This document shows positions 1,174 through 16,049 of a DNA stretch of 17,874 nt, piece after piece. The first letter of the stretch is position 1. The number at the start of each line of letters is the position of its first letter. Origin of the DNA: Candidatus Fermentibacteraceae bacterium (GTDB lineage: Bacteria; Fermentibacterota; Fermentibacteria; Fermentibacterales; JCC-6); NCBI GenBank assembly GCA_041686025.1, contig JAWLEP010000048.1, positions 1-17,874 of the forward strand, written 5' to 3'. Below the pieces are notes generated by a model that was not told where the DNA came from, ran no database searches, and saw only the letters and a program-made list of their open reading frames with translations. The position numbers and the translations under genes were made by a program.

Positions 1174-1734
1174 CTACCTGCCCGAGGAGCCGCCGGAGGT
1201 TCCGTCGCCCGAGTCACGCGGGTCACCTCGGCCTCCGGTACGGCTCCCGGAGGTGCGGCTTCCGGAGGAGCTCGAGCTGGAGCTGTTTCGCAGATTCCAG
1301 ACCTGCGACTCCAGCGACTCCACCCTCTCTCCCAGGGAGTCGGCCACCAGGGCCAGCTCCTCCGAATGGGCCACGATGGAATCCAGGCTGGCGCTGAGCG
1401 AATCCATGCCGGCCCTGAGCACATACAGGCTCTCCGCCTGGGCCGTGGCGTTCTCTACCAGCGAATCCAGGTCGGGCAGCTGCAGGCTGTCCATGCCTCC
1501 GGCGGACACCGAAAGCGAGCTTCCGGCATCCAGCCTGAGCTCCTGCACCTGCTCCTCCAGCTCGCTGAGTCGCAGGGTCACGCTCTCCGAGGCCACGTCC
1601 AGGGCCTCGCCGGTGACCTCCTCGAGGTCCTCCACCCTCTCGTTGACCTGGTCTATGCGCTGGTTGGCCTCGTCCATTCCGGGAACGCTGCAGGCCAGCA
1701 GCCCCAGCGTCATGGCGAATGCTATCGGTCTCAA
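1174..1734 (-). CDS. Hypothetical coiled-coil lipoprotein with Ser/Gly-rich disordered tail (186 aa)
   Basis: TTG start overlaps the amrA stop (TTGA), with GGAGG upstream. Signal peptide MRPIAFAMTLGLLA-C carries a lipobox. Heptad-like acidic helices follow, and the C-terminus contains SSSSSSSGSRTSGSRTGG. Confidence 0.75.
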   Translation of the reverse strand: MRPIAFAMTLGLLACSVPGMDEANQRIDQVNERVEDLEEVTGEALDVASESVTLRLSELEEQVQELRLDAGSSLSVSAGGMDSLQLPDLDSLVENATAQAESLYVLRAGMDSLSASLDSIVAHSEELALVADSLGERVESLESQVWNLRNSSSSSSSGSRTSGSRTGGRGDPRDSGDGTSGGSSGR

Positions 1735-2297
1735 GTGGCTTCCCCTCCGTTGTCGCCGAAGACCTCGGCGGTGTAGGTGTAGACGGTGGTCTCTGATCTC
1801 TTCCAGCAGTCGGGGGACAGGCCGGCCTTCAGGCAGGTGTGGGATAGGAAGGTCTCCCTGTCCCACCCCTCCTCCTCGGCCACCTGCGGCAGCAGCGTGC
1901 CGGCGAAGGGGCCGGAGCGGATGTATATGCCGTGCTCGCCGGGGACCACGTCCTCCGGGTCGGTCTCCTCCATTGGCGACAGCAGCGACACCTGGATGGA
2001 GAGGTCGTCCACCTCCGCCGGGCGCACCGGCCGGAACCTGGGGTCCCGCACCGCAGCGGCCCTGGCCATGGAGACCAGCGTCTCCCCCAGGCTGCCCTCT
2101 CCGGTGAAGTGCCCGATGCAGCCCCGCAGCCTTCCGTCTCCTGTCTTGAGGGTGACGAATGCTCCACCCTGCCTCTGCAGCTCCGTGATGTCCGGGGGGT
2201 CGGGAAGGGGATGGCCCGAGGCGGCGGCCCTCACCGCCCTGCGAACCAGCTCCAGTATCTGCCTGCGGCCCTCCGGCGGAGTTGTGCTCCCGGCCAT
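1731..2297 (-). CDS. amrA: AmmeMemoRadiSam system protein A (AMMECR1 domain)
   Basis: Motifs GAFVTLK...LRGCIG, AAVRDPRF, LLPQVA, W...FL...CLKAGL. Confidence 0.95.
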   Translation of the reverse strand: MAGSTTPPEGRRQILELVRRAVRAAASGHPLPDPPDITELQRQGGAFVTLKTGDGRLRGCIGHFTGEGSLGETLVSMARAAAVRDPRFRPVRPAEVDDLSIQVSLLSPMEETDPEDVVPGEHGIYIRSGPFAGTLLPQVAEEEGWDRETFLSHTCLKAGLSPDCWKRSETTVYTYTAEVFGDNGGEAT

Positions 2298-2298
2298 G

Positions 2299-3111
2299 TC
2301 ATTCCACCTCCGTCAGGGCGCCGGCGAAGTAGCCCACCACCGCCGAGCGGTCCCCCGAAGCGGTGGCGGAGGTGTCGTAGGCCAGCTCCCGGGTGCCCGT
2401 GTAGCCCCTGCGCTTCGCCCAGCTCATCAGCGTGAGTATGGGGCCCGCGCCGCAGGCCTCCCCGGAGCCCTCGCGGAGGACGGAGACCAGCCGGTCGGGG
2501 TCGGCGGACAGGAAAGCGTCGGCCACCTGGCGGTCCAGCTTCTTCGCGTGGTCCTCCGGGTGGTAGTGGGACATGTCGCTGGAGGCCACCAGCAGCGTCT
2601 TCACGCCGTCGTCGAGCAGGCCGGCCAGCGACTCGGCCAGCCGGTCGGAGTGCTCCCGGGAGACCTCGCCCTGTATGATCACTACCAGCTTCGCGTCCGG
2701 CCACCGCACCTGCACGAAGGGGACCTGGACCTCGGTGGAGTGCTCCGAGGAATGTGCCCGGGGCTCGAAGGAGAAACCGGAGTCCAGCAGGGCGCTCACC
2801 GTCTCCCGGTCGATGTCGGCCACTCCCAGCGGGGTGCGGAAGCCCTCGGCGTCCAGGACGGAGCTGCCGTAGACGGGATACCGGTGGGAGGGGGCGATCA
2901 GGACCACCCGCTCCACGCCGTCGGGGGCCGCCGCGAAGGCGGCGCCGGCTACCGGGCCGGAGTAGACGTAGCCCGCGTGGGGGCTCACGATCCCCCGCAC
3001 GCTGCCATCGGGGTCCTCCCCCGACTTCTCGATGTACCCGGCCACCGTCCGGCGGAGCTCGCCGGCGTCGTCGGGGTAGAACATGCCCGCTACGACGGGT
3101 TCTCTTATCAT
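2299..3111 (-). CDS. amrB: AmmeMemoRadiSam system protein B (MEMO1 family)
   Basis: Motifs REPVVAGMFYP, PHAGYVYSG, PSH, EHSTEVQVPF, SSDMSHY, ACG, VVGY. ATGA overlap with the dapB stop. Confidence 0.95.
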   Translation of the reverse strand: MIREPVVAGMFYPDDAGELRRTVAGYIEKSGEDPDGSVRGIVSPHAGYVYSGPVAGAAFAAAPDGVERVVLIAPSHRYPVYGSSVLDAEGFRTPLGVADIDRETVSALLDSGFSFEPRAHSSEHSTEVQVPFVQVRWPDAKLVVIIQGEVSREHSDRLAESLAGLLDDGVKTLLVASSDMSHYHPEDHAKKLDRQVADAFLSADPDRLVSVLREGSGEACGAGPILTLMSWAKRRGYTGTRELAYDTSATASGDRSAVVGYFAGALTEVE

Positions 3112-3875
3112 GGTGCCTCCCCTCCCGTGGGTGAAGAAGCCATAAGCTCTCTCATTCCGTACAGCCCCGGGGGACTGCCTGCCACCATCTCCGCCGCCGC
3201 CAGCGCTCCCAGGGCGAAGGTCCTGCGGCCGACGGCCCGGTGGGAGAGCTCCAGCACCTCCCCATCGCAGAGAAGCATCACGCGGTGGTCTCCGGGAACG
3301 TCTCCGCCCCGGACCGAGTGCACGCCCACCTCGCCCCGCGGCCGCGGTCCGGCGGCGCCGTGCCTGCCGAAGACCCGGCCGTCCTCACCGGCGGTGCGGC
3401 TCCAGGCGTCCAGGAGGGTGAGGGCCGTGCCGCTGGGGGAGTCCACCTTGCGGCGGTGGTGGGTCTCCACCAGCTCCAGGTCCGCAGACCCTCCCAGCAT
3501 GGCCCCGGCGCTCTCCAGCAGCCTGCCCAGAACGTATATGCCGCGGCTCATGTTGAAGGACTGGAACACGGCCCTCTCCCGCGACCAGCGGCGGACCATG
3601 TCCATGTGCAGCTCCTCCAGGCCGGTGGTGCCGGTTACCAGGGCGGCTGTGCTTCCCGCCAGCAGCCGGGCAAGATCGTTCCAGGCCTGCGGCAGCGAGA
3701 AGTCCACCACCACGTCCGTGCCCTCGGCAAGCGCGTCTCCGGGAGGCGTGCCGGGGGGGCGGCTGTCGTAGAGGGCGGTTATGCGAAAGCGGCCCTCCGC
3801 CTCCTCTGCCACCAGGCGGCCCATGCGGCCGCTGCTTCCGAAGACGGCCAGGCCCGGCAGGCCACCCCGGGTCAC
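3108..3875 (-). CDS. dapB: 4-hydroxy-tetrahydrodipicolinate reductase
   Basis: GSSGRMG Rossmann motif, VVDFS, VTGTTG, catalytic ETHHRRKVDSPSGTA. GTG start overlaps the dapA stop (GTGA); the longer ORF in the track is an in-frame upstream extension inside dapA. Confidence 0.95.
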   Translation of the reverse strand: MTRGGLPGLAVFGSSGRMGRLVAEEAEGRFRITALYDSRPPGTPPGDALAEGTDVVVDFSLPQAWNDLARLLAGSTAALVTGTTGLEELHMDMVRRWSRERAVFQSFNMSRGIYVLGRLLESAGAMLGGSADLELVETHHRRKVDSPSGTALTLLDAWSRTAGEDGRVFGRHGAAGPRPRGEVGVHSVRGGDVPGDHRVMLLCDGEVLELSHRAVGRRTFALGALAAAEMVAGSPPGLYGMRELMASSPTGGEAP

Positions 3876-4744
3876 AGCAGGCCGGCCTCCGAAAGCACCC
3901 CGCGGAGCTCGCCCTCCAGGTCCTGCCGCATGGGCACCAGCGGCAGTCGGAGCTCGTCGGCGATCATGCCCTTCATCCAAAGGGCCTTCTTCACCGGCAT
4001 GGGGTTGGTCTGCAGGAACATGGCCCGTATGGCCGGCAGCAGCCTGGCCTGCAGCCTCCGGGCGGCCTCCAGCTCGCCGCCGCGGGCCAGCTTCACCATC
4101 CGCGACATCTCGCCGGGGGCGATGTTGGAGATCACCGAGACCACACCTTCCGCCCCCAGTGCCGCCTGGGCCATGGCCAGCGGGTCGTCGCCGGAGAGTA
4201 TGTCGAAGCCCTCCCCGCAGAGCGTGCGCAGCTCGGTAACCCGCTCCACCGAGCCCTGGGCGTCCTTTATGCCGGCTATGTTGGGATGCTGCGCCAGCTC
4301 GGCCACCGTCCGGGCCTCTATGGCCTTTCCGGTCCTGCCGGGGACGTTGTAGAGGTAGACGGGGCACTCCGAGGCGTCCGCCGCCTGCCGGAAGTGCTCC
4401 ACCTGTCCCCGATGAGTGGGCTTGTTGTAGTAGGGCGTAATAAGCAGCACGGCGTCCAGGCCCATCCCGGAGATCTTCCGGGTGAGCTCCACCGTGGTGG
4501 CCGTGGAGTTGGTGCCGGTGCCGGCCATGACCGGCACCCGGCCGGCGGCGGCGTCCATCACCGTTGAGACCACGTCCTCGCGCTCGCCGTCGGTAAGCGT
4601 GGCGGCCTCTCCGGTGCATCCGCAGGCCAGCAGGCCGTCTATGCCGCTGTCTATCTGCCAGCCGACCAGCTTCTCCAGGGCGGGGAGGTCCACCTCCCCG
4701 CCCCGGAAGGGCGTCACCAGCGCAGTAATGGCTCCGCTAAGCAT
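3872..4744 (-). CDS. dapA: 4-hydroxy-tetrahydrodipicolinate synthase
   Basis: ALVTPF, GCTGE, PYYNKP, YNVPGRT, Schiff-base GIKDA, SGDD, TNPMPVK. Adjacent to dapB. Confidence 0.95.
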   Translation of the reverse strand: MLSGAITALVTPFRGGEVDLPALEKLVGWQIDSGIDGLLACGCTGEAATLTDGEREDVVSTVMDAAAGRVPVMAGTGTNSTATTVELTRKISGMGLDAVLLITPYYNKPTHRGQVEHFRQAADASECPVYLYNVPGRTGKAIEARTVAELAQHPNIAGIKDAQGSVERVTELRTLCGEGFDILSGDDPLAMAQAALGAEGVVSVISNIAPGEMSRMVKLARGGELEAARRLQARLLPAIRAMFLQTNPMPVKKALWMKGMIADELRLPLVPMRQDLEGELRGVLSEAGLL

Positions 4745-4747
4745 CCT

Positions 4748-5503
4748 CTAGCCGTTCCCCCCTCCCTGCGTGAGCTGGTTGAGGAAGGGCTTCAGCATCT
4801 CCAGGGGGATGGGGAACACGGTGGTGGAGTTGTTCTCCACCGCGATCTCCGAGAGGGTCTGCAGGTAGCGGAGCTGGAGGGCCACCGGATGCCGCGATAT
4901 CACGTCCGCAGCCTCGGCAAGCTTCTGGGAGGCCTCGAACTCGGCTTCGGCCCGGATGATCTTGCCGCGGCGGTCGCGCTCGGCCTCCGCCTGGCGGGCC
5001 ATCACCCGCTGCATGTTCTCGGGGAGGTCAACGTGCTTCACCTCGACGGTGCTCACCTTGATGCCCCAGGGGTCGGTCATGCGGTCCAGTATGTCCTGCA
5101 GCTTGTTGTTTACGTCCTCGCGGTCGGAGAGCAGCTCGTCCAGCGAGGTCTCTCCCAGGACGCTGCGCAGGGTGGTCTGGGCCAGCTGGCTGGTGGCGTA
5201 GTGGTAGTTCTCCACCTCGATGATGGACTTCTCGGCGTCGATCACCCGGAAGTACACCACGGCGTTGACGCTCACCGATACGTTGTCCCGGGTGATGATG
5301 TCCTGCGGCGGCACGTCCATTGCAACCACCCGCAGAGGCACCTTCTGTATCTTGTCCACGATGGGCAGGACCACGATCAGTCCGGGGCCCTTTATTCCAA
5401 TGAACTTGCCCAGCCGGAACACCACGGCCCTCTCGTACTCCTTGATCACCCTCAGCACAATAACCATCAGGAAGACTGCAGCAATGACTATGCCCCAGAC
5501 CAT
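4748..5503 (-). CDS. SPFH/band 7 stomatin-like (slipin) protein
   Basis: N-terminal [61 protein letters not shown]. Start at 5503 is preferred (AGGAAAGGA upstream); the alternative is 5530. Confidence 0.95.
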
Positions 5504-5545
5504 ACGGAATCCTTTCCTTCCGGCCGCCATGCAGGCGGCGTTGCC

Positions 5546-5587
5546 AAAGAAAAACCCGGCCCACCCTGATTGTAAGGGATGAACCGG
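5546..5587 (-). terminator. Putative intrinsic terminator downstream of nfeD
   Basis: Minus strand reads CCGGTTCATCCCT-tacaatc-AGGGTGGGCCGG, a 12-bp stem with two G:U pairs and one bulge, followed by GTTTTTCTTT. Confidence 0.5.
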
Positions 5588-5597
5588 ACCCGCTCAA
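5569..5597 (-). promoter_or_regulatory. Putative sigma70 promoter for the SPFH-dapA-dapB-amrBA segment
   Basis: Minus strand TTGAGC (5597-5592), 17-nt spacer, TACAAT (5574-5569), in the largest intergenic gap of the operon. Confidence 0.6.
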
Positions 5598-5627
5598 CCT
5601 CTTGCGTCCATGTCCGTACGGGAGCGG

Positions 5628-5948
5628 TCAGACCGGTTCCACCTCCAGGACCATGTCATCCTTCACCGCGGTGACCCGGACCTCCATGCCGGGCCTGAGG
5701 TCTGCGGCGCTCTCGCACCACCATCTCTCTCCCCGGACCTCCACGGAGTAGCGTCCCCTGTGCCGGGGGCCGGTCTTAACCAGGCCGGTCTCCCCCACCA
5801 TCTTCTCCACCCCGCTGGACTTGGGGCGCCTCTGGGCGATGAGGCCCACGTAGAGGATGCCCAGGGCCACCAGGAGAAGGAAGATGAAGAGGGGCCCGCC
5901 CAGGAGGGTCCAGGCGGCCACCACCAGCTCCTCCCAGATGTAGCTCAT
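5628..5948 (-). CDS. nfeD: Short NfeD-family protein (TM + OB-fold), partner of the SPFH protein
   Basis: Hydrophobic N-terminus, then SGVEKMVGETGLV, VEVRGERWWCES, PGMEVRV, VLEVEPV. ATGA overlap with the pilT stop and GGAGG SD. Lies directly upstream of the SPFH gene. Confidence 0.88.
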   Translation of the reverse strand: MSYIWEELVVAAWTLLGGPLFIFLLLVALGILYVGLIAQRRPKSSGVEKMVGETGLVKTGPRHRGRYSVEVRGERWWCESAADLRPGMEVRVTAVKDDMVLEVEPV

Positions 5949-7045
5949 CTCTCCCTCCATTCGGAAGTTGACTGAACGCCTTCGAGCTTCAGCTGCAGGG
6001 CGTTGGGGTTGGTGGCGGCAGCCAGAGCGGTCTCAGTATCTATCTTGTTCTCTTGCAGCAATTTGATCAGAGCCATGTCGAAAGTCTGCATTCCGTACTG
6101 GCCCCCGCTCTGCTCCATGGCGTCGTGGATCTGATGGGTCTTGGCCGGGTCGGATATGCAGCTCTGTATGAAGGCGGTATGCACCATCACCTCCGCCGCC
6201 AGTACCCGCTCGTCACCGCCGACCCCTGGAAGCAGCCTCTGGCTTATCACGGCCTTCAGCAGGCCGCCCACCTGTATCCGAACCTGGTTCTGCTGGTCGG
6301 CGCGGAACATGTCAATGAGCCTGTTCACCGTCTCCGGGGCGTCGGTGGTGTGCAGGGTGCTCAGGACCAGGTGGCCGGTCTCGGCCCCTGTGATGGCCAC
6401 CGAGGCGGTCTCCCGGTCGCGCATCTCGCCTATGAGTATCACGTCGGGGTCCTGCCTGAAGACCGACCGGAGGGCGCTGCGCCAGTCGGGGGTGTCGATT
6501 CCCACCTCCCGCTGGCATATGCTGGACCTGTGGTCACGGTGTATGAACTCGATGGGGTCCTCTATGGTGACGATGTGGGCGCTGCGGCTTTTGTTGATCC
6601 GGTCGATTATTGCTGCCAGGGTGGTGGACTTGCCGCTGCCGGTGGCCCCGGTCACCAGCACCAGTCCCCTCTGCTGCCGGGCGATCTTCTCCACCACGGG
6701 GGGAAGCCCCAGGTCCTCTATCTGGGGGATCTCATAAGGGATTCGCCGCATCACTATGGCCGTGGTGCCCCGCTGGTGGTAGATGTTGACCCGGAACCTG
6801 GCCTTGCCAGGGAGGGAGTGGGAGATGTCTATCTCCTCCCCCGCCTCGTAACGGGGGAGCTGCTTGTCCGGCATCATCTCCCGGGCTATCCTGTCCACGT
6901 GCTGCTGGGTAAGGTCTCCGTAGGTCTTGGCGTGCTCGATGCTGCCCGAGCGCCTTACTATGGGCGGGCTTCCCACCTTGAAGTGAATGTCGCTTACCTC
7001 CTCCTCCAGCAGGAGGGAGAGGATCTTGTCAACGCCCTGCGCCAT
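5945..7045 (-). CDS. pilT: PilT/PilU-family type IV pilus retraction ATPase
   Basis: SDIH, FRVNIY, Walker A GATGSGKSTT, TIEDPIEF, QREVG, QDPDVILIGEMRD, His box AETGHLVLSTLHT, GMQTFD. Confidence 0.9.
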   Translation of the reverse strand: MAQGVDKILSLLLEEEVSDIHFKVGSPPIVRRSGSIEHAKTYGDLTQQHVDRIAREMMPDKQLPRYEAGEEIDISHSLPGKARFRVNIYHQRGTTAIVMRRIPYEIPQIEDLGLPPVVEKIARQQRGLVLVTGATGSGKSTTLAAIIDRINKSRSAHIVTIEDPIEFIHRDHRSSICQREVGIDTPDWRSALRSVFRQDPDVILIGEMRDRETASVAITGAETGHLVLSTLHTTDAPETVNRLIDMFRADQQNQVRIQVGGLLKAVISQRLLPGVGGDERVLAAEVMVHTAFIQSCISDPAKTHQIHDAMEQSGGQYGMQTFDMALIKLLQENKIDTETALAAATNPNALQLKLEGVQSTSEWRER

Positions 7046-7622
7046 AGAGTCCCCGTTCGCTGATGTACCGCCTCACAGCCTCGGTTGTAAGATAGGCGGT
7101 GGGCCGTCCCCGGGCAAACCGCTCCCGCAGGTCCGAGGAGGAGATCCAGAGGCCGGGAAACGGGAACACCTCCACCCTTCCACGGGCAAGTTCGGGTACG
7201 CTCTCAGACTGGAAGCCGGGCCTGGTCCCCGCCACCACGCTGGCCAGCCGCAGAAGCCTCTCGGGGGTCTTCCAGCTCTCCAGGTCCAGCAGGCTGTCCA
7301 TGCCCACGATGAACCAGACCCGCTGCGGGGGAAGCCCCAGGGCCTGCAGGAGGTCGGCGCTGTAGGAGGCGCCGGTCTCCCCCTCCAGGTCACGCACGTG
7401 AAGAAGGCGGCTTGTGGAGGTGGCCAGGCGCAGCATCTCCATCCTGGCGGCCAGGCCGGCCTCCGGGGCCTTCTTGTGAGGCGGCGTGCGGGAGGGGTAG
7501 AGGACCACGCTGTCCAGGCCGAACCTGTAGGCCGCCTCGGAAGCCAGTGCCAGGTGGCCGTAATGGGGAGGATCGAAGGTGCCGCCGAGCAGGCCGATGC
7601 GGCCATCCCCGGGGAGGCTCAT
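7029..7622 (-). CDS. nadD: Nicotinate-nucleotide adenylyltransferase
   Basis: GGTFDPPHYGH (HxGH), PPHK, FIVGMDSL, ISSSDLR. ATG at 7622 overlaps the bamD stop (ATGA). Confidence 0.93.
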   Translation of the reverse strand: MSLPGDGRIGLLGGTFDPPHYGHLALASEAAYRFGLDSVVLYPSRTPPHKKAPEAGLAARMEMLRLATSTSRLLHVRDLEGETGASYSADLLQALGLPPQRVWFIVGMDSLLDLESWKTPERLLRLASVVAGTRPGFQSESVPELARGRVEVFPFPGLWISSSDLRERFARGRPTAYLTTEAVRRYISERGLYGAGR

Positions 7623-8368
7623 CGAATCCTGGCCAGCCCCTCCTCCACCGACCGCTCCTGCTCGGGGCTGAGATCGCACTCGTCCCTGGCCCTCCGGTAG
7701 AGCCTGTCGGCGGAGAACTCGTTGCCCTGGGCGTAGTTGGACTTCGCCATCTGTATGAGGATGTCGGCCTTCCAGTCGGTCTCCCCGTAGCGGCTCATGG
7801 CCTCGTTGAGGTAGAGCAGGGCGGCGTCGTGCCTGTCCCTGCGAGCGTAGAACCTGCCGATGAACAGCGCCCTTCTGGCCAGAAGGTCGTAGATCTTCGC
7901 CCGCAGGCTGTCGGCGTCTTCCATGAGATCGGAGCCCGGGTAGCGGTCGTAGAAGGCCGCCAGCTCCGTCATGGCGCTCTCCACGGGGGTGGTGTCCTTG
8001 CGGTAGTCGCGGTGCTGGGCCCAGAAGAGCCTGGCCAGCGCCAGCTGTCCGTCGTCGGCGTAGGCGCTGCGGGGAAAGTCCCTCACCAGCCTACGCAGGC
8101 CGAACTCGGCGTCCGCCCACAGCCCCAGCTCCATCTGCGACAGGCTGAGCCTGTAGAGGTACCTGTCGGTGTGGGCCGCCCCCGGGAACCTGTACATCAG
8201 GCCTGTGTAGAGGTCCTCCGCCGCCCGGTACCTCCCGGTGGCGAAAGCCGCCTCGGCGGCCTCCTCCAGCTCCTCGCGGGTCATGTCCGTGATGTTGTAG
8301 CTTCTTCCGCAGCCGGCCGCAACGGCCAGCAGCAGGATCGAAGCTGCCATGAGTGTGGTGCGGATCAT
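7619..8368 (-). CDS. bamD: Outer membrane protein assembly factor BamD (YfiO-type TPR lipoprotein)
   Basis: Lipobox AAG-C. TPR helices with RFPG, FPRSAYADD, DYRKDTT, RYPGS, LARRALFIGRFY, AALLY, typical of BamD. Confidence 0.85.
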   Translation of the reverse strand: MIRTTLMAASILLLAVAAGCGRSYNITDMTREELEEAAEAAFATGRYRAAEDLYTGLMYRFPGAAHTDRYLYRLSLSQMELGLWADAEFGLRRLVRDFPRSAYADDGQLALARLFWAQHRDYRKDTTPVESAMTELAAFYDRYPGSDLMEDADSLRAKIYDLLARRALFIGRFYARRDRHDAALLYLNEAMSRYGETDWKADILIQMAKSNYAQGNEFSADRLYRRARDECDLSPEQERSVEEGLARIR

Positions 8369-8411
8369 CCTAGAATGCCCTTCTTCGTTTCCGTGGCCTC
8401 CGCCGGGCGCG

Positions 8412-9401
8412 TCACGGCTGCACCAGGTACAGGAGGGAGTCCCTCCTGGAGGCGGCCACCTGAGACCAGTGGGTGGTGAGGCCCGGGGAGGTGTTGCACG
8501 CCCGCCTGTACCAGCGCAGGGCCTCCTCGGCGTCCCTGCTTCCCTCGGCCAGCTCGCCCATCAGCACCGCGGCCTCCACCTTCTCGCCCACGAAGTCCGA
8601 GGCCCAGACCTCCATCAGCTTCTCGCGGGCCAGCACAGTCCTGCCCGCATCCATGTCCTTGCGGGCCAGCTCCAGCAGCAGCCTCATCCGGCGCTGCCGG
8701 TTGGCCGGCCCTATCTCCCCCAGCCGGTCCAGCTCGGTGAGCACCGAGAGCTCCTCGTCCCGGCGGTCTGTGTACGGGAGCAGCCCCGCCCTGGCCCTGA
8801 GGATGCGTACCCGCAGGTCGGTGCGGGTGCGGGATATCCTGCCCAGCTCCAGCAGGTGACGCTCGGCGCAGGCGGCCAGCATGCTGTCCGCCCGTTCTGT
8901 ACCCAGCATGCTGTCGGGTGTTCCAGACACGTATCCCGTGTGCGTGCCGGCGTAGGCCCCCCGCAGCAGCCACTCCTCCTCGAAGGTCTGCGCCACCTGG
9001 TCGCTGAGCCGCATGGCCATCTCGAAGGCCTCGAAGGCCTGCAGGGAGTCCCGGTCCCGCGCCATCTCCCAGCCCAGCCTCCGCCACAGCTCCGCCCGGA
9101 GGGTGGAGTCGGTATCCTCCGGGTGCTCCTCCAGGGAGACCAGGGCCTGCTTGGCCTTCTGCCTGAACATCCGCCCCCGTTCGGCCTGGGAGGCCAGCAC
9201 CGCGGTCTCGGCGTACTCCAGCTGCAGCTCCGGCGTGCTGTCGCGGTTGGCCAGGGCCTCCTCGTAGAGCATGAGGCTGTGGGTGTACTCCCCCGCCTGG
9301 CGGAGGAGCCGGGCCTCCTCCAGGGTGTCCGACTGCGGCCCGTCGCCCCCGCAGGCCAGAACGGCCAGGAAGGCCAACAGCCCCGCCAGCCTTGGGATCA
9401 T
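8412..9401 (-). CDS. TPR-like alpha-helical lipoprotein, function unknown
   Basis: Lipobox VLA-C. TPR-like segments (GEYTHSLMLYEEAL, AFEAFEMAMRL, EEALRWYRRA). ATGA overlap with the upstream gene. Confidence 0.75.
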   Translation of the reverse strand: MIPRLAGLLAFLAVLACGGDGPQSDTLEEARLLRQAGEYTHSLMLYEEALANRDSTPELQLEYAETAVLASQAERGRMFRQKAKQALVSLEEHPEDTDSTLRAELWRRLGWEMARDRDSLQAFEAFEMAMRLSDQVAQTFEEEWLLRGAYAGTHTGYVSGTPDSMLGTERADSMLAACAERHLLELGRISRTRTDLRVRILRARAGLLPYTDRRDEELSVLTELDRLGEIGPANRQRRMRLLLELARKDMDAGRTVLAREKLMEVWASDFVGEKVEAAVLMGELAEGSRDAEEALRWYRRACNTSPGLTTHWSQVAASRRDSLLYLVQP

Positions 9402-9997
9402 TCGGCCCGGCTGGAGTAGAACAGGTATATGAGGCTGGCCACCACGCCCGATACGATAAGGGGCTCCAGTATGCCGCCCTCGCCGTCTCCTTCCATCTCC
9501 GGCGACAGCCAGGGGTCGCCCCTGCCCCCCGCCAGCTGCGACAGGTGGGAGACCGGCACCCGGTCGGACACGTCGGCCCCGTACCGGGTGGCAAGCACCA
9601 CCTGGCCCGATGGGCCCAGGAGAGTGACCGAGATCTGGCAGGTGGCGTGCCGGGCGACCTTCTTGGTGCCGATGAGCCAGGAGCGGGAAGACTCTCCGTA
9701 CCTGACCTCCAGCTCCATGGGCCGGAGCCTGAGCCGGTAGGCGGACCGGGCCGACTCATCCTCCGCCGAGTTGACGGTAATTCCACCGGCGCTCAGCTCG
9801 GAGGTGGCAGTCTGCTCCAGCAGCCACCCTCCCGCGTGATCGCCCGCCATCTCCACCACAACCGTGTCCACGCCCAGCTCGGCGAGATCGCCGGGAATCT
9901 CCGAGACCGCCTCCAGCACGGCCGCCTCGGCCAGCTCGAGGTTCGTGGGCGCCGGCATCGCCGCCAGCGCTGTCAGTACGAGTATCGATGGGATCAT
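9398..9997 (-). CDS. Hypothetical exported protein with C-terminal membrane anchor
   Basis: N-terminal signal peptide MIPSILVLTALAA; C-terminal hydrophobic segment ILEPLIVSGVVASLIYLFY; purine-rich SD (AGGGGAAGG). Confidence 0.75.
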   Translation of the reverse strand: MIPSILVLTALAAMPAPTNLELAEAAVLEAVSEIPGDLAELGVDTVVVEMAGDHAGGWLLEQTATSELSAGGITVNSAEDESARSAYRLRLRPMELEVRYGESSRSWLIGTKKVARHATCQISVTLLGPSGQVVLATRYGADVSDRVPVSHLSQLAGGRGDPWLSPEMEGDGEGGILEPLIVSGVVASLIYLFYSSRAE

Positions 9998-10058
9998 AGC
10001 CTTCCCCTGGGTCTCTTAGGGCCTTATCTGCGGGGTCGCCGGCGCTCCGGCCTCCCCT

Positions 10059-11366
10059 TCAACGGTTCGCGCCTGCCGGCCCGGCCTTCGGGCCGGGCAC
10101 GCAATGCACGAATATATCACTTCCCTCCGAGGAGATAACCTCCACCTCGGCCACCGTACCCGGGCCGGGATGCCGGCCGCGGAAGCGGCAGACGGCGTCC
10201 ACCCCCGGTGCGTCATACATGGTATGTCCCCTCCCGGCCTCGTCAACCAGAACCGCGAAGGTGCCTTCGCCGAGTACCCCGTCCCAGCGGAGCCAGGCGG
10301 CCTCCGCCACCGCCGACAGCTCCGCCAGCCTCTCCCGGACCGCTGATTCGGATGGACGGTCCCCGTCCCGGCCGTGCTCCCGGGTGCCCGGCTCGCTGTA
10401 GTAGGGAAAGGCCACCAGGTTCCTGATGGAAGGGTATTCGCCCAGAAAGTCCAGAAGCCTCCGGAAGTCCTCGCCGGTCTCGCCGGGATAGCCGGCGATC
10501 ACCGTGGCCCTCACCGCGATCCTCCTGTCGGCCGCTTCCACCCGCCGCATAATCCCCCGGAGGTGCTCCTCGCCATATGGTCTGCCCATCCGCAGCAGCA
10601 CCCGGTCGCTGGCGTGCTGCATGGGGAGGTCCAGGTAGGGCATCACGTTCTCCCTCTCCTCCATAAGGTCCAGGAGCCGCTCCGGCATGTGGGCGGGGTG
10701 TATGTAGTAGCTGCGCCACCAGATGTCCGGATGCAGCCGGGAGAGCCGATCCAGAAGGTCGGCCAGGTCGAGGCCCCCGTCCCGCCACAGGCCGCAGTCC
10801 TGCCCCACCAGGCCGATCTCGGCAGCCCCCTGTTCGGCCATTGCCTTCGCCTGCAGCAGTATGTGGTCTCGACCCACGGAAACGTAGGGGCCCCGGATGG
10901 CGGGGATGGTGCAGAAGGCGCAGCGGTTGCTGCACCCGTCGGAGATCTTCAGGTAGCGCACCACTTCCCCCTCCACCGGAAGGCGGAGATGGCCCGGGCA
11001 ATCCACGTCCAGGAAACGGGCCAGGCCGGCCAGGTCTCCGGGGCCCACCACCAGGTCCAGGTCCTCCAGGCCCCCGCTTCCGTCGTCGGCGTACCTGGCG
11101 GGAAGGCACCCGGCCAGCACCAGCCTCCGGCCGGGCTGCCGCCGTTTCCAGTCCATGGCCGAAAGCAGGTAGTCCATGGACTCCTCAACCGCCGGCCGTA
11201 TGAAGGCGCAGGTATTGACCAGCAGCAGGTCTGCGGCCTCCGGGTCGTCGGCCAGCCGCCAGCCGGCTGCGGACAGGACGGCGGCGAAGCCCTCCGTGTC
11301 GGTCTCGTTCTTGGGGCAGCCGAAGGTCACCAGGCAGGCCCGCCCCGCCCGGTCAGGGCCTGGCAA
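10059..11366 (-). CDS. rimO: Ribosomal protein S12 methylthiotransferase RimO (MiaB/RimO radical SAM)
   Basis: UPF0004 cysteines in TFGCPKN, VNTCAFI and AGCL; YLKISDGCSNRCAFCTIPAIRG (CxxxCxxC); PYLDLPMQHAS; GYPGET; TRAM-like DAPGVD. TTG start with GGAGG upstream. Confidence 0.88.
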   Translation of the reverse strand: MPGPDRAGRACLVTFGCPKNETDTEGFAAVLSAAGWRLADDPEAADLLLVNTCAFIRPAVEESMDYLLSAMDWKRRQPGRRLVLAGCLPARYADDGSGGLEDLDLVVGPGDLAGLARFLDVDCPGHLRLPVEGEVVRYLKISDGCSNRCAFCTIPAIRGPYVSVGRDHILLQAKAMAEQGAAEIGLVGQDCGLWRDGGLDLADLLDRLSRLHPDIWWRSYYIHPAHMPERLLDLMEERENVMPYLDLPMQHASDRVLLRMGRPYGEEHLRGIMRRVEAADRRIAVRATVIAGYPGETGEDFRRLLDFLGEYPSIRNLVAFPYYSEPGTREHGRDGDRPSESAVRERLAELSAVAEAAWLRWDGVLGEGTFAVLVDEAGRGHTMYDAPGVDAVCRFRGRHPGPGTVAEVEVISSEGSDIFVHCVPGPKAGPAGANR

Positions 11367-11940
11367 CCGCGTAGCCCTCCGGCACCTCCAGCCCGAAGGC
11401 GCCCTCCGGGGGCGGACCCCCGGCCCGTACCCCTTCCAGGCGGTAGGTGATGGTGTTCCCGTTGATATCGGTGGTGGCGTAGAGGAAGGGCAGGCTGTCG
11501 GAGAGGGTGTACCCCGCTCTCACTGCGGCCACTCCGCTTCCGGCCCCCTCCAGCCGCACCAGGACGCTGTCGCCACTGACCCGCACGGAGTCCACCATGG
11601 TTGAGTCGTCGTAGGAGCGGAGGGTGCCCAGGAAGCTGTCCGGGCGCCGGTCTTCGTAGATGATGACCTGGCTGGTGGCCGGCTCCACCGTGTAGCTCCG
11701 CGCGCCGTCGAAGCCGATCCTGCGGCCCTCGGGCTCGGCAAAGTCCAGCACGAAGAGGTTCGGGGGGGCCAGCAGGAAGGTGCCCCTGGTGGTGTCGGCC
11801 TCCATGGTGAGCATCAGGTAGTCGGTGCGCACGAAAGTTCCCCGCAGGGACTCCACGCTCTGCAGCCTGTGGTTCAGCGCTGCAAGCGGAGCCTCGGGCG
11901 GGACCTCCGCCAGTGCCAGCAGCAGGATCAGAAGGATCAA
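11353..11940 (-). CDS. lolA: Outer membrane lipoprotein carrier protein LolA
   Basis: Signal peptide, then SLRGTF, GTFLLAPPNLFVLDF, IGFDG, YTVEPATSQVII, DINGNTITY, F...VPEG. TTG start overlaps the upstream stop (TTGA). Near ftsK, as is common for lolA. Confidence 0.82.
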   Translation of the reverse strand: MILLILLLALAEVPPEAPLAALNHRLQSVESLRGTFVRTDYLMLTMEADTTRGTFLLAPPNLFVLDFAEPEGRRIGFDGARSYTVEPATSQVIIYEDRRPDSFLGTLRSYDDSTMVDSVRVSGDSVLVRLEGAGSGVAAVRAGYTLSDSLPFLYATTDINGNTITYRLEGVRAGGPPPEGAFGLEVPEGYAVARP

Positions 11941-12575
11941 CCTCCGCTCCCCTCGCCCCGCGGTCCGCCCGCGGCGGGCGCCGCGTCGCTGCCCACAACC
12001 AGTATCACTCCCGAGAAGCCCGGGGCCACCATCTCCGCCAGCTCTCCGGCGGGCTGGGAGGGAACTGTCTCCGGGGCGGACAGGACCCGTCCCAGGGCCC
12101 CGGTCACCCGGGCGGCGTCCTCCCCATATCCCTCGGTGTAGAGGACCAGCGTGATCTCCGGAGCCCCCTGGTCCTGGGTGCAGGAGGCTTCGAACCCCCG
12201 GGACCGCAGCGCCGACGCCAGCCTGTCGGCGGAGGCGGACAGGCCCGGCCGGGAGATCAGTGTCAGACGGGGTGCGTCGGAGGGGCTCCCGGTGCTGTCG
12301 GGGACTGAGGCGCCGGCCAGGTCCGACTCGATGCGCCTCAGGGCCAGGGAGGCGTCCTCGGCCAGAGGGGATTCGGGGTACCTCTCGCCGAAACCGGTGA
12401 GCAGCTCCCTGGCGTCTGAGAGGTTGCCGCGGAAGTAGAGCTGCGAGGCCCGGGCGAAGTCCCTGGTGTCGCCGTCCCCCCGCAGCAGGCCCTGCCGGTC
12501 GTAGTCGGAGCCGCCTCCTCCGCAGCCGGCGGCCAGCAGAACCGCGGCCAGCAGGAAGGCAGTCGCTGCTCTCAT
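11937..12575 (-). CDS. Lipoprotein with a single TPR (CpoB/YfiO-like) and a C-terminal LytR_C-like domain
   Basis: Lipobox AAG-C. FARASQLYFRGNLSDARELLTGFGERYPESPLAEDA is TPR-like. RPGLSASADRLASALRSRGF...TLVLYTEG...AARVTGALG...VILVVGSD fits the LytR_C pattern. Confidence 0.7.
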   Translation of the reverse strand: MRAATAFLLAAVLLAAGCGGGGSDYDRQGLLRGDGDTRDFARASQLYFRGNLSDARELLTGFGERYPESPLAEDASLALRRIESDLAGASVPDSTGSPSDAPRLTLISRPGLSASADRLASALRSRGFEASCTQDQGAPEITLVLYTEGYGEDAARVTGALGRVLSAPETVPSQPAGELAEMVAPGFSGVILVVGSDAAPAAGGPRGEGSGG

Positions 12576-14824
12576 TCGCCTTCACCGCCCTCTCCTTCGG
12601 TTTCCTCCTGCCCGGGTGCCGTCTCGGGCTCCGGGTCCAGCAGCACGTCTCTGGCCTTGCTCCCCTGGAAGGGGCCCACCACTCCCATCTGCTCCAGCAT
12701 GTCGATCAGCCGCGCGGCCCGGGAGTAGCCCACCCGGAGCCTCCTCTGCAGGAAGGAGACCGAGCCCTGCTGAAACTGCACCACCAGCTGCCTGGCCTCG
12801 TCCAGCAGGGGGTCGTCCAGCTTGAGGTCGCCGGTTGCGCCCTTCCCCGGGGTGTCGTCGTCCGGCGGCTCGTACTCGTAGGGCATGGACGGCTGCTCCC
12901 GCCAGAAGGCCACCAGCCGCTGCGCCTCTTCGGTGCTCAGAAAGGAGCCGTGGATGCGTATGGGCTCCGGGGACGCGGAGGGCAGGAAGAGCATGTCTCC
13001 CTTGCCCAGCAGCTTCTCCGCCCCGTTCATGTCCAGTATGGTCCGGGAGTCGGTCTTAGACTGGACGTTGAAGGCTATCCGGGAGGGGAAGTTGGCCTTT
13101 ATCACCCCAGTGATCACGTCCACGGAGGGCCTCTGCGTGGCCACTATCAGGTGGATGCCCACCGCCCTTGCCATCTGGGCAAGCCTGGCGATGGGCTGCT
13201 CCACGTCGGCTCCGGAGACCAGCATCAGGTCGGCCAGCTCGTCGATGACCACCACCACGTAGGGCATGCGCTCGTCCTCGCTGCCGGCCTTCACCTCGTT
13301 GTTGTACTCCTCTATGGTGCGGGCGCCGTCCTTGGTGAGCTTGCTGTAGCGCTCCTCCATCTCCTGCACCAGCTTCTCCAGCAGGCCCGTGGCCTTTCGC
13401 GCCTGCAGTATCACCGGGGACCAGAGGTGGGGTATGTCCTGGTACAGGGAGAGCTCCAGCATCTTGGGGTCCACCAGGGCCAGCCGCACCTCCCGGGGGT
13501 TTCGGGTCATCAGGATGGTGGAGATTATGGAGTGCAGGCAGACGCTCTTGCCGGAGCCGGTGGCCCCGGCCACCAGCAGGTGGGGCATGTCGCAGATGTC
13601 CGCCGCGAAGGCGTCGCCGCCTATGGTCTTGCCCAGGGCGATGGGCAGCCTGGAGGTATCGCACTCATCCAGTATCTCCTTGAGATATACCGTCTCCGGC
13701 TCCGCGTTGGGCACCTCGATTCCCACCACTCCCCGTCCCGGTATGGGGGCCAGTATGCGCACCCTCTTGGCCTTCATGGCCAGGGCCAGGTCGTCGGCCA
13801 GGCCCAGTATCCTGTTCACCTTGACCCCGGGGCCGGGCTTCAGCTCGAACCTGGTGAGAACCGGGCCCGGCTTGCATCCCACGATACGGCAGGGGACTCC
13901 GAACTGCTCCAGGCCGTCCACCAGCATCTCGGACCTGCGCTTCAGGTCCTCCCGGCTCTCTCCCCCTCCCCTTCTCGGGGGAGGGTCCACGAGGATGCTG
14001 CTCTCCGGCAGGGTATAGGCGTCCTCACCGTCATCGGTTCCAGCGTCGGACGCCGGGGGCCGGGGCCGGGGCTCGCTGCGGTTTTCGTGGCCGGAGTCCT
14101 TCCCGAAGCCGGGGGCCAGGCCCGATGGCGGCGCGTCCCCGCCGGCCGGGGCCGTCTCCTCCCGGGCAGACGCTTCCAGGTCCTCGGCGGGCCGCAGCGA
14201 TGGCGGCCCGTCATCGGCTGAGGGGCCGGCTGCAGACCTGGGCCTGCCCCGCCCCCCGCCGGAGACCGCCCGGCGGACCCTGAGCCTGGGCATGGAGAGC
14301 GACCCCATCCGGTCCAACAGCCTCCTCACGTCGCCCAGCAGGTCCCATCCGGTGAGCAGAACCAGGGAGGACGTGAAGAGGGTCAGCAGCGCCAGGTAGC
14401 TGATGATGGGGCCTATGGAGCCGGTGAGCATCTCCACCAGACCGGTGGCGGCCACCCCTCCGGGCGCTCCCTGCAGCGAGGGGGCCAGCCTTCGGCCCAC
14501 CATGTCCACCAGGGCGGCCAGGAAGAAGGCGGTGACGAAGCCACCGAGGAGGTACCGGAAGCCGTTGCGGAGGTAGCTTATGCCCAGCGTCCATCCGGCC
14601 AGCTGAAGGCAGGCCAGGGGGGCGAAGAAGGCCAGGGCCCCGAACCGGTGGTAGAGGAAGCCCCTCACCGCCATGGTGATCCCTATCGGCGGGGCCACCA
14701 GGGCCGCCAGGAGGGCCAGTCCCGCGAAGAGGCTCACCACGAACAGGAGGTTGCGCATCCGGTGGGAGTCCCTCTTCTTCGAGGTCTTCTTCTTTCTCCT
14801 GCTGCCGGACCGGCGTCGGCTCAT
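12572..14824 (-). CDS. ftsK: DNA translocase FtsK/SpoIIIE
   Basis: N-terminal TMs, Pro/acidic linker, GPVLTRFEL, RILAPIPG, MPHLLVAGATGSGKS, DPKMLEL, IDELADLM, LAQMARAVGIH, ATQRPSVDVITG, gamma domain LQRRLRVGYSRAARLID. Confidence 0.98.
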   Translation of the reverse strand: MSRRRSGSRRKKKTSKKRDSHRMRNLLFVVSLFAGLALLAALVAPPIGITMAVRGFLYHRFGALAFFAPLACLQLAGWTLGISYLRNGFRYLLGGFVTAFFLAALVDMVGRRLAPSLQGAPGGVAATGLVEMLTGSIGPIISYLALLTLFTSSLVLLTGWDLLGDVRRLLDRMGSLSMPRLRVRRAVSGGGRGRPRSAAGPSADDGPPSLRPAEDLEASAREETAPAGGDAPPSGLAPGFGKDSGHENRSEPRPRPPASDAGTDDGEDAYTLPESSILVDPPPRRGGGESREDLKRRSEMLVDGLEQFGVPCRIVGCKPGPVLTRFELKPGPGVKVNRILGLADDLALAMKAKRVRILAPIPGRGVVGIEVPNAEPETVYLKEILDECDTSRLPIALGKTIGGDAFAADICDMPHLLVAGATGSGKSVCLHSIISTILMTRNPREVRLALVDPKMLELSLYQDIPHLWSPVILQARKATGLLEKLVQEMEERYSKLTKDGARTIEEYNNEVKAGSEDERMPYVVVVIDELADLMLVSGADVEQPIARLAQMARAVGIHLIVATQRPSVDVITGVIKANFPSRIAFNVQSKTDSRTILDMNGAEKLLGKGDMLFLPSASPEPIRIHGSFLSTEEAQRLVAFWREQPSMPYEYEPPDDDTPGKGATGDLKLDDPLLDEARQLVVQFQQGSVSFLQRRLRVGYSRAARLIDMLEQMGVVGPFQGSKARDVLLDPEPETAPGQEETEGEGGEGE

Positions 14825-15351
14825 ACCCGGCGGACCGTGTTTCCGTCATCGTCGGCGGGAAAGGCCGGGTCCGGCTCCCAGCGGCCGTCGATGTTGTATC
14901 GGTAGACGACGGTCCTGCCCTCCTGCAGGCTCACCTCGGCCACCCAGCTGCCGTCCGGCAGCTTCTGCATGGGAGTGGCCTCCTCGCTCCATCCGTTGAA
15001 CTCCCCCACCACGGACACGTAGTCGGCGTCGGCGGCCCCCAGGCAGAGGAAGCTGACGTCCACCCGGGGGGCCAGCCTGTCCTGGATCCTGTCCTTCAGG
15101 CGGTCGTAGGCCCGGAAGGAGGGTCTGACCTTGGGGGGGATGCGGATGAGGCCGTCGCCCCTGGGATCGCGGGCCCGCCTGGACCTGCCCCGGCGGGTCT
15201 CGAAGCAGCCGAAGCCCCGGAGGAAGACGCTGTCTCCCCCGCAGAGGGTCTCGGAGATGACCTCCAGCGTCGTGTCCAGAACGGACCTGGCCTCGGTCTG
15301 GGTGAGCCCCGTCCTGTCCGCCACCTCCCGAGCGAGTTCGTCCCTGGTCAT
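14821..15351 (-). CDS. HU/IHF-family DNA-binding protein fused to a C-terminal glycogen-binding CBM48/AMPK-beta-like (E-set) domain (176 aa)
   Basis: aa 1-90 are HU-like: MTRDEL...V.LRGFGCF...RRARDP...IPPKVRPSF...LKDRI. aa 97-176 are CBM-like: VSVVGEFNGW, PMQKLPDGSW, YRYNIDGRWEPDP, DDDGN. Single uninterrupted ORF with GGAGG SD; ATGA overlap with ftsK. Confidence 0.9.
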   Translation of the reverse strand: MTRDELAREVADRTGLTQTEARSVLDTTLEVISETLCGGDSVFLRGFGCFETRRGRSRRARDPRGDGLIRIPPKVRPSFRAYDRLKDRIQDRLAPRVDVSFLCLGAADADYVSVVGEFNGWSEEATPMQKLPDGSWVAEVSLQEGRTVVYRYNIDGRWEPDPAFPADDDGNTVRRV

Positions 15352-15444
15352 GGTTCCCTCCAATGCGTTCCCGGAAAGGGGCAGCCGGATGCTTCCGTCT
15401 ATCTTTCCATTGCAACGCCGGTTGCCGGCGGGCGGCTCGTGGAC

Positions 15445-15473
15445 TCAATACAGACGGCGACCGGCCCGGTCAA
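15445..15473 (-). promoter_or_regulatory. Possible sigma70 promoter for the HU-CBM/ftsK operon
   Basis: Minus strand TTGACC, 17-nt spacer, TATTGA in the divergent intergenic region; the -10 lacks the conserved final T. Confidence 0.35.
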
Positions 15474-15506
15474 GTACGGAAGTGCCCGGAGGAGCGGGAA
15501 GGCCCT

Positions 15507-15512
15507 TATATT
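15507..15512 (+). promoter_or_regulatory. Possible -10 element for aroK
   Basis: TATATT 33 nt upstream of the aroK ATG in otherwise GC-rich DNA; no convincing -35. Confidence 0.3.
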
Positions 15513-15545
15513 GTGCTCCGTCAACGATTCGGAGGTGACCGGCGG

Positions 15546-16049
15546 ATGAAGCCCCATTCGAGGATAGCGCTGGCGGGCCCGCCCTTCTCGGGCAAGACCG
15601 CCGTCGGGAGACGGCTGGCCCGCATGCTGGAACTGGAGCCGGTGGACCTGGACCGGGAGATCGAGGCCGGCGCCGGACGGTCCATACCGGAGATATTCCG
15701 GGACCGGGGCGAGGAGGGGTTCCGGAAGCTGGAGGCCGCCGCCCTGGACCGGGCGCTGCGGAGGGACGGGGTGGTGATCGCGCTGGGAGGAGGCGCACTC
15801 CTGGACCCCGATTGCCGGCGCCGGGTTCTCCGCCTCTGCACGGTCTTCACGCTGTGGGCGTCCGAGGAGGAGACGGTGTCGAGGTGGGAGCAGGGGGGCC
15901 GCCCGCTGGCGCCTACCCCGCAGGCCCTTCGCCTCCTTCTGCGGAAGAGGCGGCGGCACTACCTCTCCCTGCCCCGCAGGGTGGACACCACCGGCAGGAC
16001 GCCGGAGGAAGTCTGCGCCGAGATCGCCGGCATGGTCGGGGCGGGCTAG
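15546..16049 (+). CDS. aroK: Shikimate kinase
   Basis: Walker A GPPFSGKT, DLD, SIPEIF..RGEEGFRKLE, ALGGG, RPL, R..HY. Strong SD GGAGGTGA at 15531-15538. Confidence 0.92.
   Translation: MKPHSRIALAGPPFSGKTAVGRRLARMLELEPVDLDREIEAGAGRSIPEIFRDRGEEGFRKLEAAALDRALRRDGVVIALGGGALLDPDCRRRVLRLCTVFTLWASEEETVSRWEQGGRPLAPTPQALRLLLRKRRRHYLSLPRRVDTTGRTPEEVCAEIAGMVGAG

Follow-up and report, generated by a model that had tools for sequence, protein, structure and literature searches.

An HU/IHF protein fused to a CBM48-type domain in Fermentibacterota: a possible DNA-bending regulator of its own ftsK operon

Introduction

Proteins of the HU/IHF superfamily are almost always bare dimers of 90-residue chains, and the few clades in which they are fused to other domains are uncharacterised. 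We here deal with a gene for a 176-amino acid (aa) protein that joins an HU/IHF domain to a carbohydrate-binding module (CBM) of the CBM48/AMPK type. It was found in 17,874 nucleotides (nt) of contig JAWLEP010000048.1 (assembly GCA_041686025.1, a Candidatus Fermentibacteraceae bacterium), which are called the window throughout; all coordinates are window positions. The fusion is a real, hitherto undescribed and Fermentibacterota-restricted member of the HU/IHF superfamily. Its product is tentatively seen as a third, IHF-like and DNA-bending HU/IHF paralog, which likely autoregulates the ftsK operon and has its CBM largely repurposed for docking. We give this reading a probability of roughly 45%.

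HU proteins with extra C-terminal domains have been described before. The HU-HIG and HU-CCDC81 clades comprise proteins with Ig-like (4FMR) and with envelope-binding LysM or SPOR domains, and for the latter a role in chromosome tethering was predicted (Burroughs et al. 2017, PMC5499826). As presented there, these clades are expansions within Bacteroidota, whereas the present fusion is a single-copy gene. The HU-HIG profile (PF18291) yields 24.8 bits with the fusion, which is below its cut-off of 26.2, and the HU-HIG structure 4fmr_A aligns over model residues 1-93 only. The main text of Burroughs et al. mentions neither a CBM nor glycogen nor FtsK, and the available text of Nandy et al. (10.1101/2024.06.24.600358) does not mention an HU fusion. 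No description of an HU-CBM48 protein was found in the literature, most subscription papers being outside the reach of the search. This agrees with the sequence-only reading that preceded our analysis, which knew of no characterised fusion of this kind.

Compared with classical HU and IHF (e.g., Anabaena HU, 1P71, and E. coli IHF, 1IHF), the fusion protein has the same fold, the GFGxF motif, the basic arm and Pro63. It differs by the C-terminal CBM48-fold domain and by the invariant residues Y82 and R59, F/Y43 and C/S49. It remains below the cut-offs of all NCBIfam equivalogs for IHF-alpha, IHF-beta, HU-alpha and HU-beta, the best score being 56.1 of 111 bits for IHF-alpha.

A tether between storage granule and nucleoid is known in the form of PhaF. 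PhaM (PMC3556143) and PhaF share with the fusion the concept of combining a DNA-binding part with a part that binds a storage polymer. They have no Pfam domain in common with it, the HU and CBM families being the only ones that match the fusion, and polymer binding, which is demonstrated for PhaM, is doubtful here. The CBM48 domains of AMPK-beta, SNF1-beta and GlgB have the fold of the C-terminal domain (root mean square deviation, rmsd, 1.6-2.3 Å). The window copy has the equivalents of W100, K126, W133 and N150 of AMPK-beta, and a second, conserved face of the fusion aligns with the kinase-docking face of the AMPK CBM. The differences are a shorter hairpin, sugar residues that are unconserved in the family, and HU instead of an enzyme as the partner domain.

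Two domains in one protein

That one reading frame joins HU/IHF and CBM48 was borne out by Pfam profiles and by the fold. Bac_DNA_binding (PF00216) covers aa 1-89 (E 8.8e-22, 77.6 bits at a cut-off of 22.4). The second half is matched by AMPK1_CBM at aa 109-170 (31 bits, cut-off 26.8) and by CBM_48 (29.9 bits, cut-off 22.4). The AlphaFold2 model, built with 78 homologues, has a mean pLDDT (predicted local distance difference test) of 95.0 and a pTM (predicted template modelling score) of 0.68. It predicts the HU fold, i.e., two helices, a three-stranded saddle with its beta-arm and a third helix, and then a beta-sandwich that begins at residue 96. The helix 83-93 is continuous with the strand 96-103, which leaves almost no linker, as had been anticipated. 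According to Foldseek and VIA-align, the halves of the model match HU/IHF and the CBM48 domains of AMPK, SNF1, SEX4 and GlgB; with the yeast SNF1 complex the C-terminal domain scores a Z of 11.2 and an rmsd of 1.8 Å over 79 residues. The GFGxF motif (here GFGCF), Pro63, W121, R151, W158 and N171 are all found at the positions that the sequence-only reading had given. The plus-strand frame over the gene is unrelated.

For comparison, 70 genomes of Fermentibacterota, a candidate phylum without cultured members, were used; their genera are labelled g1-g14 and two of their families f1 and f2. The length of the protein is constant among relatives (176-179 aa). An assembly artefact that merged two separate genes can be ruled out. 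Contigs of four runs from four studies cross the HU/CBM junction with 1-14 differences, and the fusion is present at full length in 60 of the 70 genomes.

Conserved residues of both domains

Exactly three HU/IHF genes, HU-like, IHF-beta-like and the fusion, are encoded in 26 of 31 good genomes; bulk packing is therefore covered by the two plain paralogs. In the HU/IHF tree, the HU half of the fusion forms a long-branch clade of its own. Proteins of Bacteroidota have the VFLRGFG motif too but do not cluster with it. In all 60 genome copies R45, GFGxF, R58, R59, R61, P63, F79 and Y82 are invariant, which means that the basic arm (R58, R61) and the arm-tip proline are kept. Position 43 is F or Y, position 49 is C or S. 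Y82 is found in 143/143 unique fusion sequences and in none of 31 plain paralogs, which have Thr at position 49. R45 presumably is the Arg of the xRGFG motif of the IHF-beta type (R46 in IHF-beta), and the invariant HU positions, judged from HU/IHF structures, presumably face the DNA. From the biology of HU and IHF, we infer that the protein forms dimers and bends DNA. A preference for particular sites is suggested by the invariant R45, F/Y43 and Y82, at which the two plain paralogs differ. It is thus likely that the protein prefers certain DNA sites, to which it binds and which it bends.

In the CBM, conservation is concentrated on one face, which is made of Q129, LPDGSW and E139 and lies opposite to the sugar site. 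L131, P132, D133 and S135 are found in 143/143 fusion sequences, E139 in 140 and R174 in 142; positions 102 and 137 are always hydrophobic. In the genome copies L131-P132-D133, S135, W136 and R174 are invariant. L131, P132, S135 and E139 are variable in 28 stand-alone relatives and in 585 control CBM domains, the latter coming from repeat proteins and thus not being mutually independent. Covariation between HU and CBM columns was uninformative, the alignment amounting to about 41 effective sequences and the top pairs tracking phylogeny.

Q129, L131, S135, V137 and E139 align to T106, S108, N111, V113 and I115 of AMPK-beta. The CBM of AMPK rests on the kinase's N-lobe, where S108 is within the interface and stabilises the pocket (PMC11752127). 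By analogy, the added CBM of the fusion likely is mainly a surface for protein docking, and its binding of glycogen would be weak or limited to certain lineages. Candidate partners are the HU body of the partner subunit, the second CBM, the IHF-beta-like paralog and FtsK.

Alternatively, the domain might need neither an outside partner nor a sugar. As a rigid extension it would make the footprint on DNA longer or let adjacent dimers stack there. The direct passage from helix to strand, the fixed length of the protein and the conserved K/R130, R174 and Q/R175 would suit this role, and the DNA element described below has twice the length of the IHF core. However, the CBM is acidic in the window copy (net charge -8; -4 to +3 in ten others), and its invariant face is hydrophobic and acidic, not basic. 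We consider this explanation quite improbable.

A candidate operator in the leader

In the leader of the ftsK operon, of which the fusion is the first gene, there is a conserved 26-bp element that likely is among the preferred sites of the fusion protein (Table 1). In relatives the upstream layout recurs as TTGAC(G/A), 17 or 18 nt, TATT(C/G)A, with the element just downstream; the predicted promoter of the window was not called by a strict consensus scan. The element has a fixed internal spacing and stands 12-115 nt before the start codon. A strict rule finds it in 54 of 62 genomes and two more have it with one mismatch, which makes 56 genomes in 12 of the 14 genera. With a matrix built without this genus, window positions 15425-15400 rank first in the 2.7-Mb genome with a score of 27.0; the next best site reaches 19.4 and column-shuffled matrices, used as the null, 13.4-23.1. 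The element occurs once per genome examined. The exact pattern has eight matches in the JGI (Joint Genome Institute) metagenome collection, all of which precede a fusion gene; since the pattern was derived from such sites, the finding is that there are no matches elsewhere in that collection.

Being long, asymmetric, confined to a single locus and placed just after the promoter, the element is most simply explained as an operator, and likely is one. Its simplest binder would be the product of the first gene of the operon, which is IHF-like and has DNA-face residues of its own. Autoregulation via this candidate operator is possible, although we would not yet call it probable.

The element could also be an alternative-sigma promoter, but the gap to the start codon is as short as 12 nt in several genomes and the element is single-copy. 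Further identities were tried and rejected. It is not a regulon motif, all seven of the extra matches inspected falling inside coding sequence. Nor does it fold as an RNA: 54 sequences gave no consensus fold and no Rfam match of weight. An element at glgC was considered, too, because the second-best match of the genome (19.4, within the shuffled range) is 88 bp from this gene. It did not recur in 39 further genomes, where the best scores averaged -5.2 as against -6.1 ± 1.4 with shuffled matrices, and it probably is the promoter of the divergent gene. Finally, an SOS box is ruled out, as the motif upstream of lexA is different.

The lexA motif merits a remark of its own. At 11 of the 12 lexA loci (L255-L266; in the genome of the window, G000:C3, near 91270-91300), a near-palindrome of the form AAACATATGTATAG lies immediately upstream of the gene; it is a candidate for the SOS box of the phylum.

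Parts of the fusion gene are represented in contigs from three RNA libraries. In the assembly of one library the contigs stop at 15440, i.e., 5 nt past the predicted -10 box of the fusion promoter, and resume at 15515, thereby flanking both of the divergent -10 boxes that were predicted, while a DNA run has no gap at this place. The gap 15441-15514 is a weak hint at two transcript starts, since it stems from one study and contigs cannot show expression or a start.

Fate of the sugar site

W121, R151 and W158 align in sequence to W100, K126 and W133 of AMPK-beta, and N171 is placed on N150 by the C-terminal register, the structural alignment ending with V176 on residue 155. The proposal that the CBM keeps its sugar residues thus holds for the window copy, in which all four are retained (with Arg for Lys at 151). 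It does not hold for the hairpin and for the family. The hairpin 141-150, which carries L146, G147 and T148 in AMPK, is four residues shorter by sequence and by structural alignment; its spacing is 9 in 87/99 fusions, the window copy included, versus 13-14 in 141 of 155 pattern-matched control domains (of 478). Of the 60 genome copies, only three have the full set W, K/R, W and N, namely those of this genome, of its congener and of one further genome; among the unique fusion sequences the count is 8/143.

The single positions differ in their fate. W121 is present in 56 of the 60 copies and replaced by Arg in four. The commonest residue at position 151 is Gln (14/60); position 158 is Leu in 33 copies and Trp in four, and position 171 is Asn in 22. 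Among the 83 columns of the CBM, positions 151, 158 and 171 rank 71st, 69th and 64th in conservation. In the control domains, K or R is found at position 151 in 95% and W at 158 in 79%. No sugar site can be recognised in the genera g7, g8, g10, g11 and g14, which still encode glycogen synthase. As reported for AMPK, W100G and K126Q abolish binding of glycogen, while W133L and G147R lower it (PMC6274970). Judged from these patterns, the essential job of the family does not need binding of an alpha-glucan.

This bears on a function that the sequence-only reading had proposed, a tether of the PhaM kind. An HU dimer would sit on the DNA and hold glycogen particles with its two CBMs, and the particles would thus be shared between the daughter cells. 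Of course, the architecture fits, a dimer could offset weak sites by avidity, and W121 is mostly retained. For the described species, no storage polymer other than glycogen is predicted (PMC5030696); in csrA mutants of E. coli, glycogen in the wrong place can keep the chromosome out (PMC4836754); and there is a precedent for polyhydroxybutyrate (PMC3556143). But the site is incomplete in 57/60 copies, with W121 changed to Arg in four of them, and this in genomes that still encode glycogen synthase. The sugar positions are among the most variable ones of the domain, and the commonest state of position 151 is the very substitution that abolishes glycogen binding in AMPK (PMC6274970). The operon contains no glycogen gene, and the invariant opposite face and Y82 would be left unexplained. 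As the conserved job of the family, the tether is not supported; we regard it as very unlikely. Because most copies have lost the sugar residues, a DNA-binding regulator with a protein-docking domain is the likelier explanation.

A sensor of alpha-glucan, the other variant of that proposal, is a different matter. Glycogen or maltodextrin bound to the CBM would release or alter the grip on the leader element, and expression of the ftsK operon would track the carbon store; other lineages would have given up the sensing but retained the role on DNA. The intact window copy, the existence of an operator-like element at a single locus, and glycogen synthase in 46/46 good-quality genomes are in line with this idea, and so is a looser site in 7 of 14 genera. 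W121 is kept in 28/28 of the nearest stand-alone relatives, modules of about 100 aa annotated as 'isoamylase early set'. In the tree of the 60 copies, W158 is found in g1, g5 and g9, and as these genera branch early in family f1, the intact site probably is ancestral. Against sensing stand the short hairpin, the conservation of the element in g7 and g8, in which a sugar site cannot be recognised, and its absence upstream of glgC in the 39 other genomes. As a general explanation, sensing appears rather unlikely.

We read these data as the repeated decay of a sugar site that worked ancestrally and of which the lineage of the window has preserved the most. Few copies could still bind alpha-glucan, but that of the window is among them; the chances that its binding is measurable are about even. 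It is unlikely, though conceivable, that in this lineage the protein acts as a glycogen-responsive, IHF-like repressor, which is bound to its own 26-bp operator in front of the ftsK/envelope operon and titrated by glycogen or maltodextrin.

Points against a docking regulator

Several observations weigh against the preferred reading of an autoregulatory DNA-bending protein with a docking CBM. Some concern the DNA. The element is missing in six genomes of one clade (g10, g11) that keep the fusion. In 53 of 54 sites, the core of E. coli IHF is matched at only 5-7 of 9 positions. Instead of an operator of the fusion protein, the element could be a second promoter or the target of another regulator. 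The link to ftsK is weak evidence of a shared function because the entire gene run down to dapA is conserved, being kept in two genomes of another family, and because a 4-nt overlap is likewise present at two further junctions of the run.

Others concern the CBM. That T106, N111, V113 and I115 line the same AMPK interface as S108 is our assumption, and the invariant sheet could instead be structural or contact DNA. W121, as mentioned, is mostly retained. The looser site (W121, K/R151 and W, L or M at 158) is found in 14/60 copies, this genus being one of the seven concerned. Leu158 need not mean a loss of the site because E. coli GlgB has a Leu at the aligned position, for which we assume a role in sugar binding; no open paper on the sugar site of the GlgB CBM48 was found in the literature. 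W153, finally, is present in 25/60 copies and could form another aromatic platform.

Distribution and descent

Apart from the 60 genomes with a full-length fusion, one of which has an in-frame stop, three have it in pieces, two being cut by contig ends and one by a frameshift. Seven genomes lack it; in five of these ftsK is cut by a contig end on the side of the fusion, and the other two (61% and 68% complete) are also devoid of ftsK. The gene split over two frames in G042 (L078) and the in-frame TAG near the start in G023 (L024) are either sequencing errors or true inactivations. In several copies (among L053-L056, L060, L062, L064, L065 and L071-L075) the start codon is TTG, GTG or CTG instead of ATG, which would lower translation.

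A search with the single sequence yielded 81 proteins, one with a profile 143. Among the 120 of the 143 profile matches listed, the full-length fusions have identities between 98% and 51%, below which come plain HU proteins of 90-95 aa. Every taxon attached to the source name of a fusion is Fermentibacterota. Both domains are seen in two of the best 150 among 1.84 billion cluster representatives, where a more distant fusion could rank lower. When 185,579 species genomes were scanned for motifs, by which only proteins retaining these are detected, 62 loci were obtained, i.e., 59 fusions and three single-domain partial matches in other taxa; again, every taxon-named source of the 59 is Fermentibacterota. 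In none of these searches (sequence, profile, best 150 cluster representatives, motifs) was an HU-CBM48 fusion found outside this phylum. The ESM Atlas contains an automatically named cluster of 100 members with the same architecture.

The fusion is near-universal in Fermentibacterota and passed down vertically, the tree of the 60 genome copies tracking genus and family. The C-terminal domain is closest to stand-alone 'isoamylase early set domain-containing' proteins of about 90-100 aa (ESM score 0.97, mostly 39-53% identity). Many of them share the strand spacing before the YxY motif. Unlike in the fusion, the Trp and the long hairpin are retained in most of them, the LPDGSW/E139/R174 signature is missing, and there is no HU domain attached. 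They are the likely donor of the domain.

Gene neighbourhood and glycogen metabolism

The ATGA overlap and the linkage to ftsK were confirmed. ftsK follows the fusion immediately in 62 of 63 genomes with a start offset of -4 to +2 nt; the remaining genome has a weak ftsK match at a contig end after the fusion. That the fusion is the first gene after a divergent promoter is true of the window, in which aroK is on the plus strand, but is not universal; in family f2, aroK is co-directional in 6/6 genomes checked.

Table 1. Features of the window around the HU/IHF-CBM48 gene
Feature	Position	Strand	Remarks
HU/IHF-CBM48 fusion gene, 176 aa	14821..15351	-	ATG at 15351, stop 14821-14823
HU/IHF domain, aa 1-93	15073..15351	-	Pfam, fold, 60 genome copies
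CBM48/AMPK-type E-set domain, aa 94-176	14824..15072	-	Pfam, fold, alignments
Shine-Dalgarno-like GGAGGG	15356..15361	-	5 nt 5' of ATG
26-bp leader element, YCAAC-N4-GTTR-N2-ATGGWRAGATA, candidate operator	15400..15425	-	56/62 genomes
Predicted sigma70-type promoter, TTGACC-17 nt-TATTGA	15445..15473	-	layout recurs in relatives
ftsK (membrane anchor, alpha, ATPase and gamma domains)	12572..14824	-	start overlaps fusion stop by ATGA
Downstream conserved gene run to dapA-like	3872..12575	-	Pfam; same order in two genomes of another family
Members of the run: LytR_C lipoprotein, lolA-like, rimO-like, hypothetical, TPR, bamD/YfiO-like, nadD-like, pilT-like, nfeD, SPFH, dapA-like	within 3872..12575	-	nadD, pilT and dapA: names interpreted from Pfam matches and sequences
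Shikimate kinase gene aroK	15546..16049	+	divergent from fusion

Elsewhere in the window, at 1731-3111 on the minus strand, Pfam identifies adjacent AMMECR1 and Memo-like genes, which we take to be two parts of the AmmeMemoRadiSAM system; there is no radical SAM gene next to them.

The fusion-to-dapA run contains no glycogen gene by Pfam, either in the window or in two genomes of another family. Glycogen metabolism itself, the absence of which would have disposed of any glycogen-related function, is present: glgA, glgB, a glgC-like gene just under the cut-off and a phosphorylase gene are found on four other contigs of this genome. In the phylum, glgA-like genes are encoded in 67, glgC-like genes in 68 and glgB-like genes in 64 of the 70 genomes. 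The glg genes are thus present throughout the phylum but are not linked to the fusion. The spread of the glycogen genes agrees with what Kirkegaard et al. report for the phylum (PMC5030696).

No glycogen-free genome was found among those of the phylum. G069, which lacks glgC and the phylum's own glgA and glgB, was rejected as a glycogen-free control. It has a compact cluster (L080:7141-17933, C65) with genes for a debranching enzyme of 1413 aa, for a phosphorylase, and for a synthase and a branching enzyme that are both divergent. This cluster likely is a substitute for the missing pathway and was likely obtained by lateral transfer. The cluster also encodes a stand-alone CBM48 of 97 aa with a complete AMPK-type site. 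In the genome of the window, a small Cys-rich, probably DNA-binding gene and two short genes (L205:2619-3706, G000:C15) are arranged head-to-head with glgC; the same arrangement of divergent promoters is seen again in most of 40 genomes.

Conclusions

The fusion is single-copy, near-universal in its phylum and equipped with a candidate DNA site. Three questions can thereby be put to a direct test in vitro and in E. coli. Can a member of the HU family serve as a regulator dedicated to one site, can glycogen be read by a nucleoid protein, and how is a sugar-binding module turned into a docking module? The phylum itself offers the natural variants, with an intact sugar site in this genome and a partial site or none in others. 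A glycogen-responsive repressor, if it were to exist, would wire the carbon store directly to the expression of genes for chromosome segregation and division.

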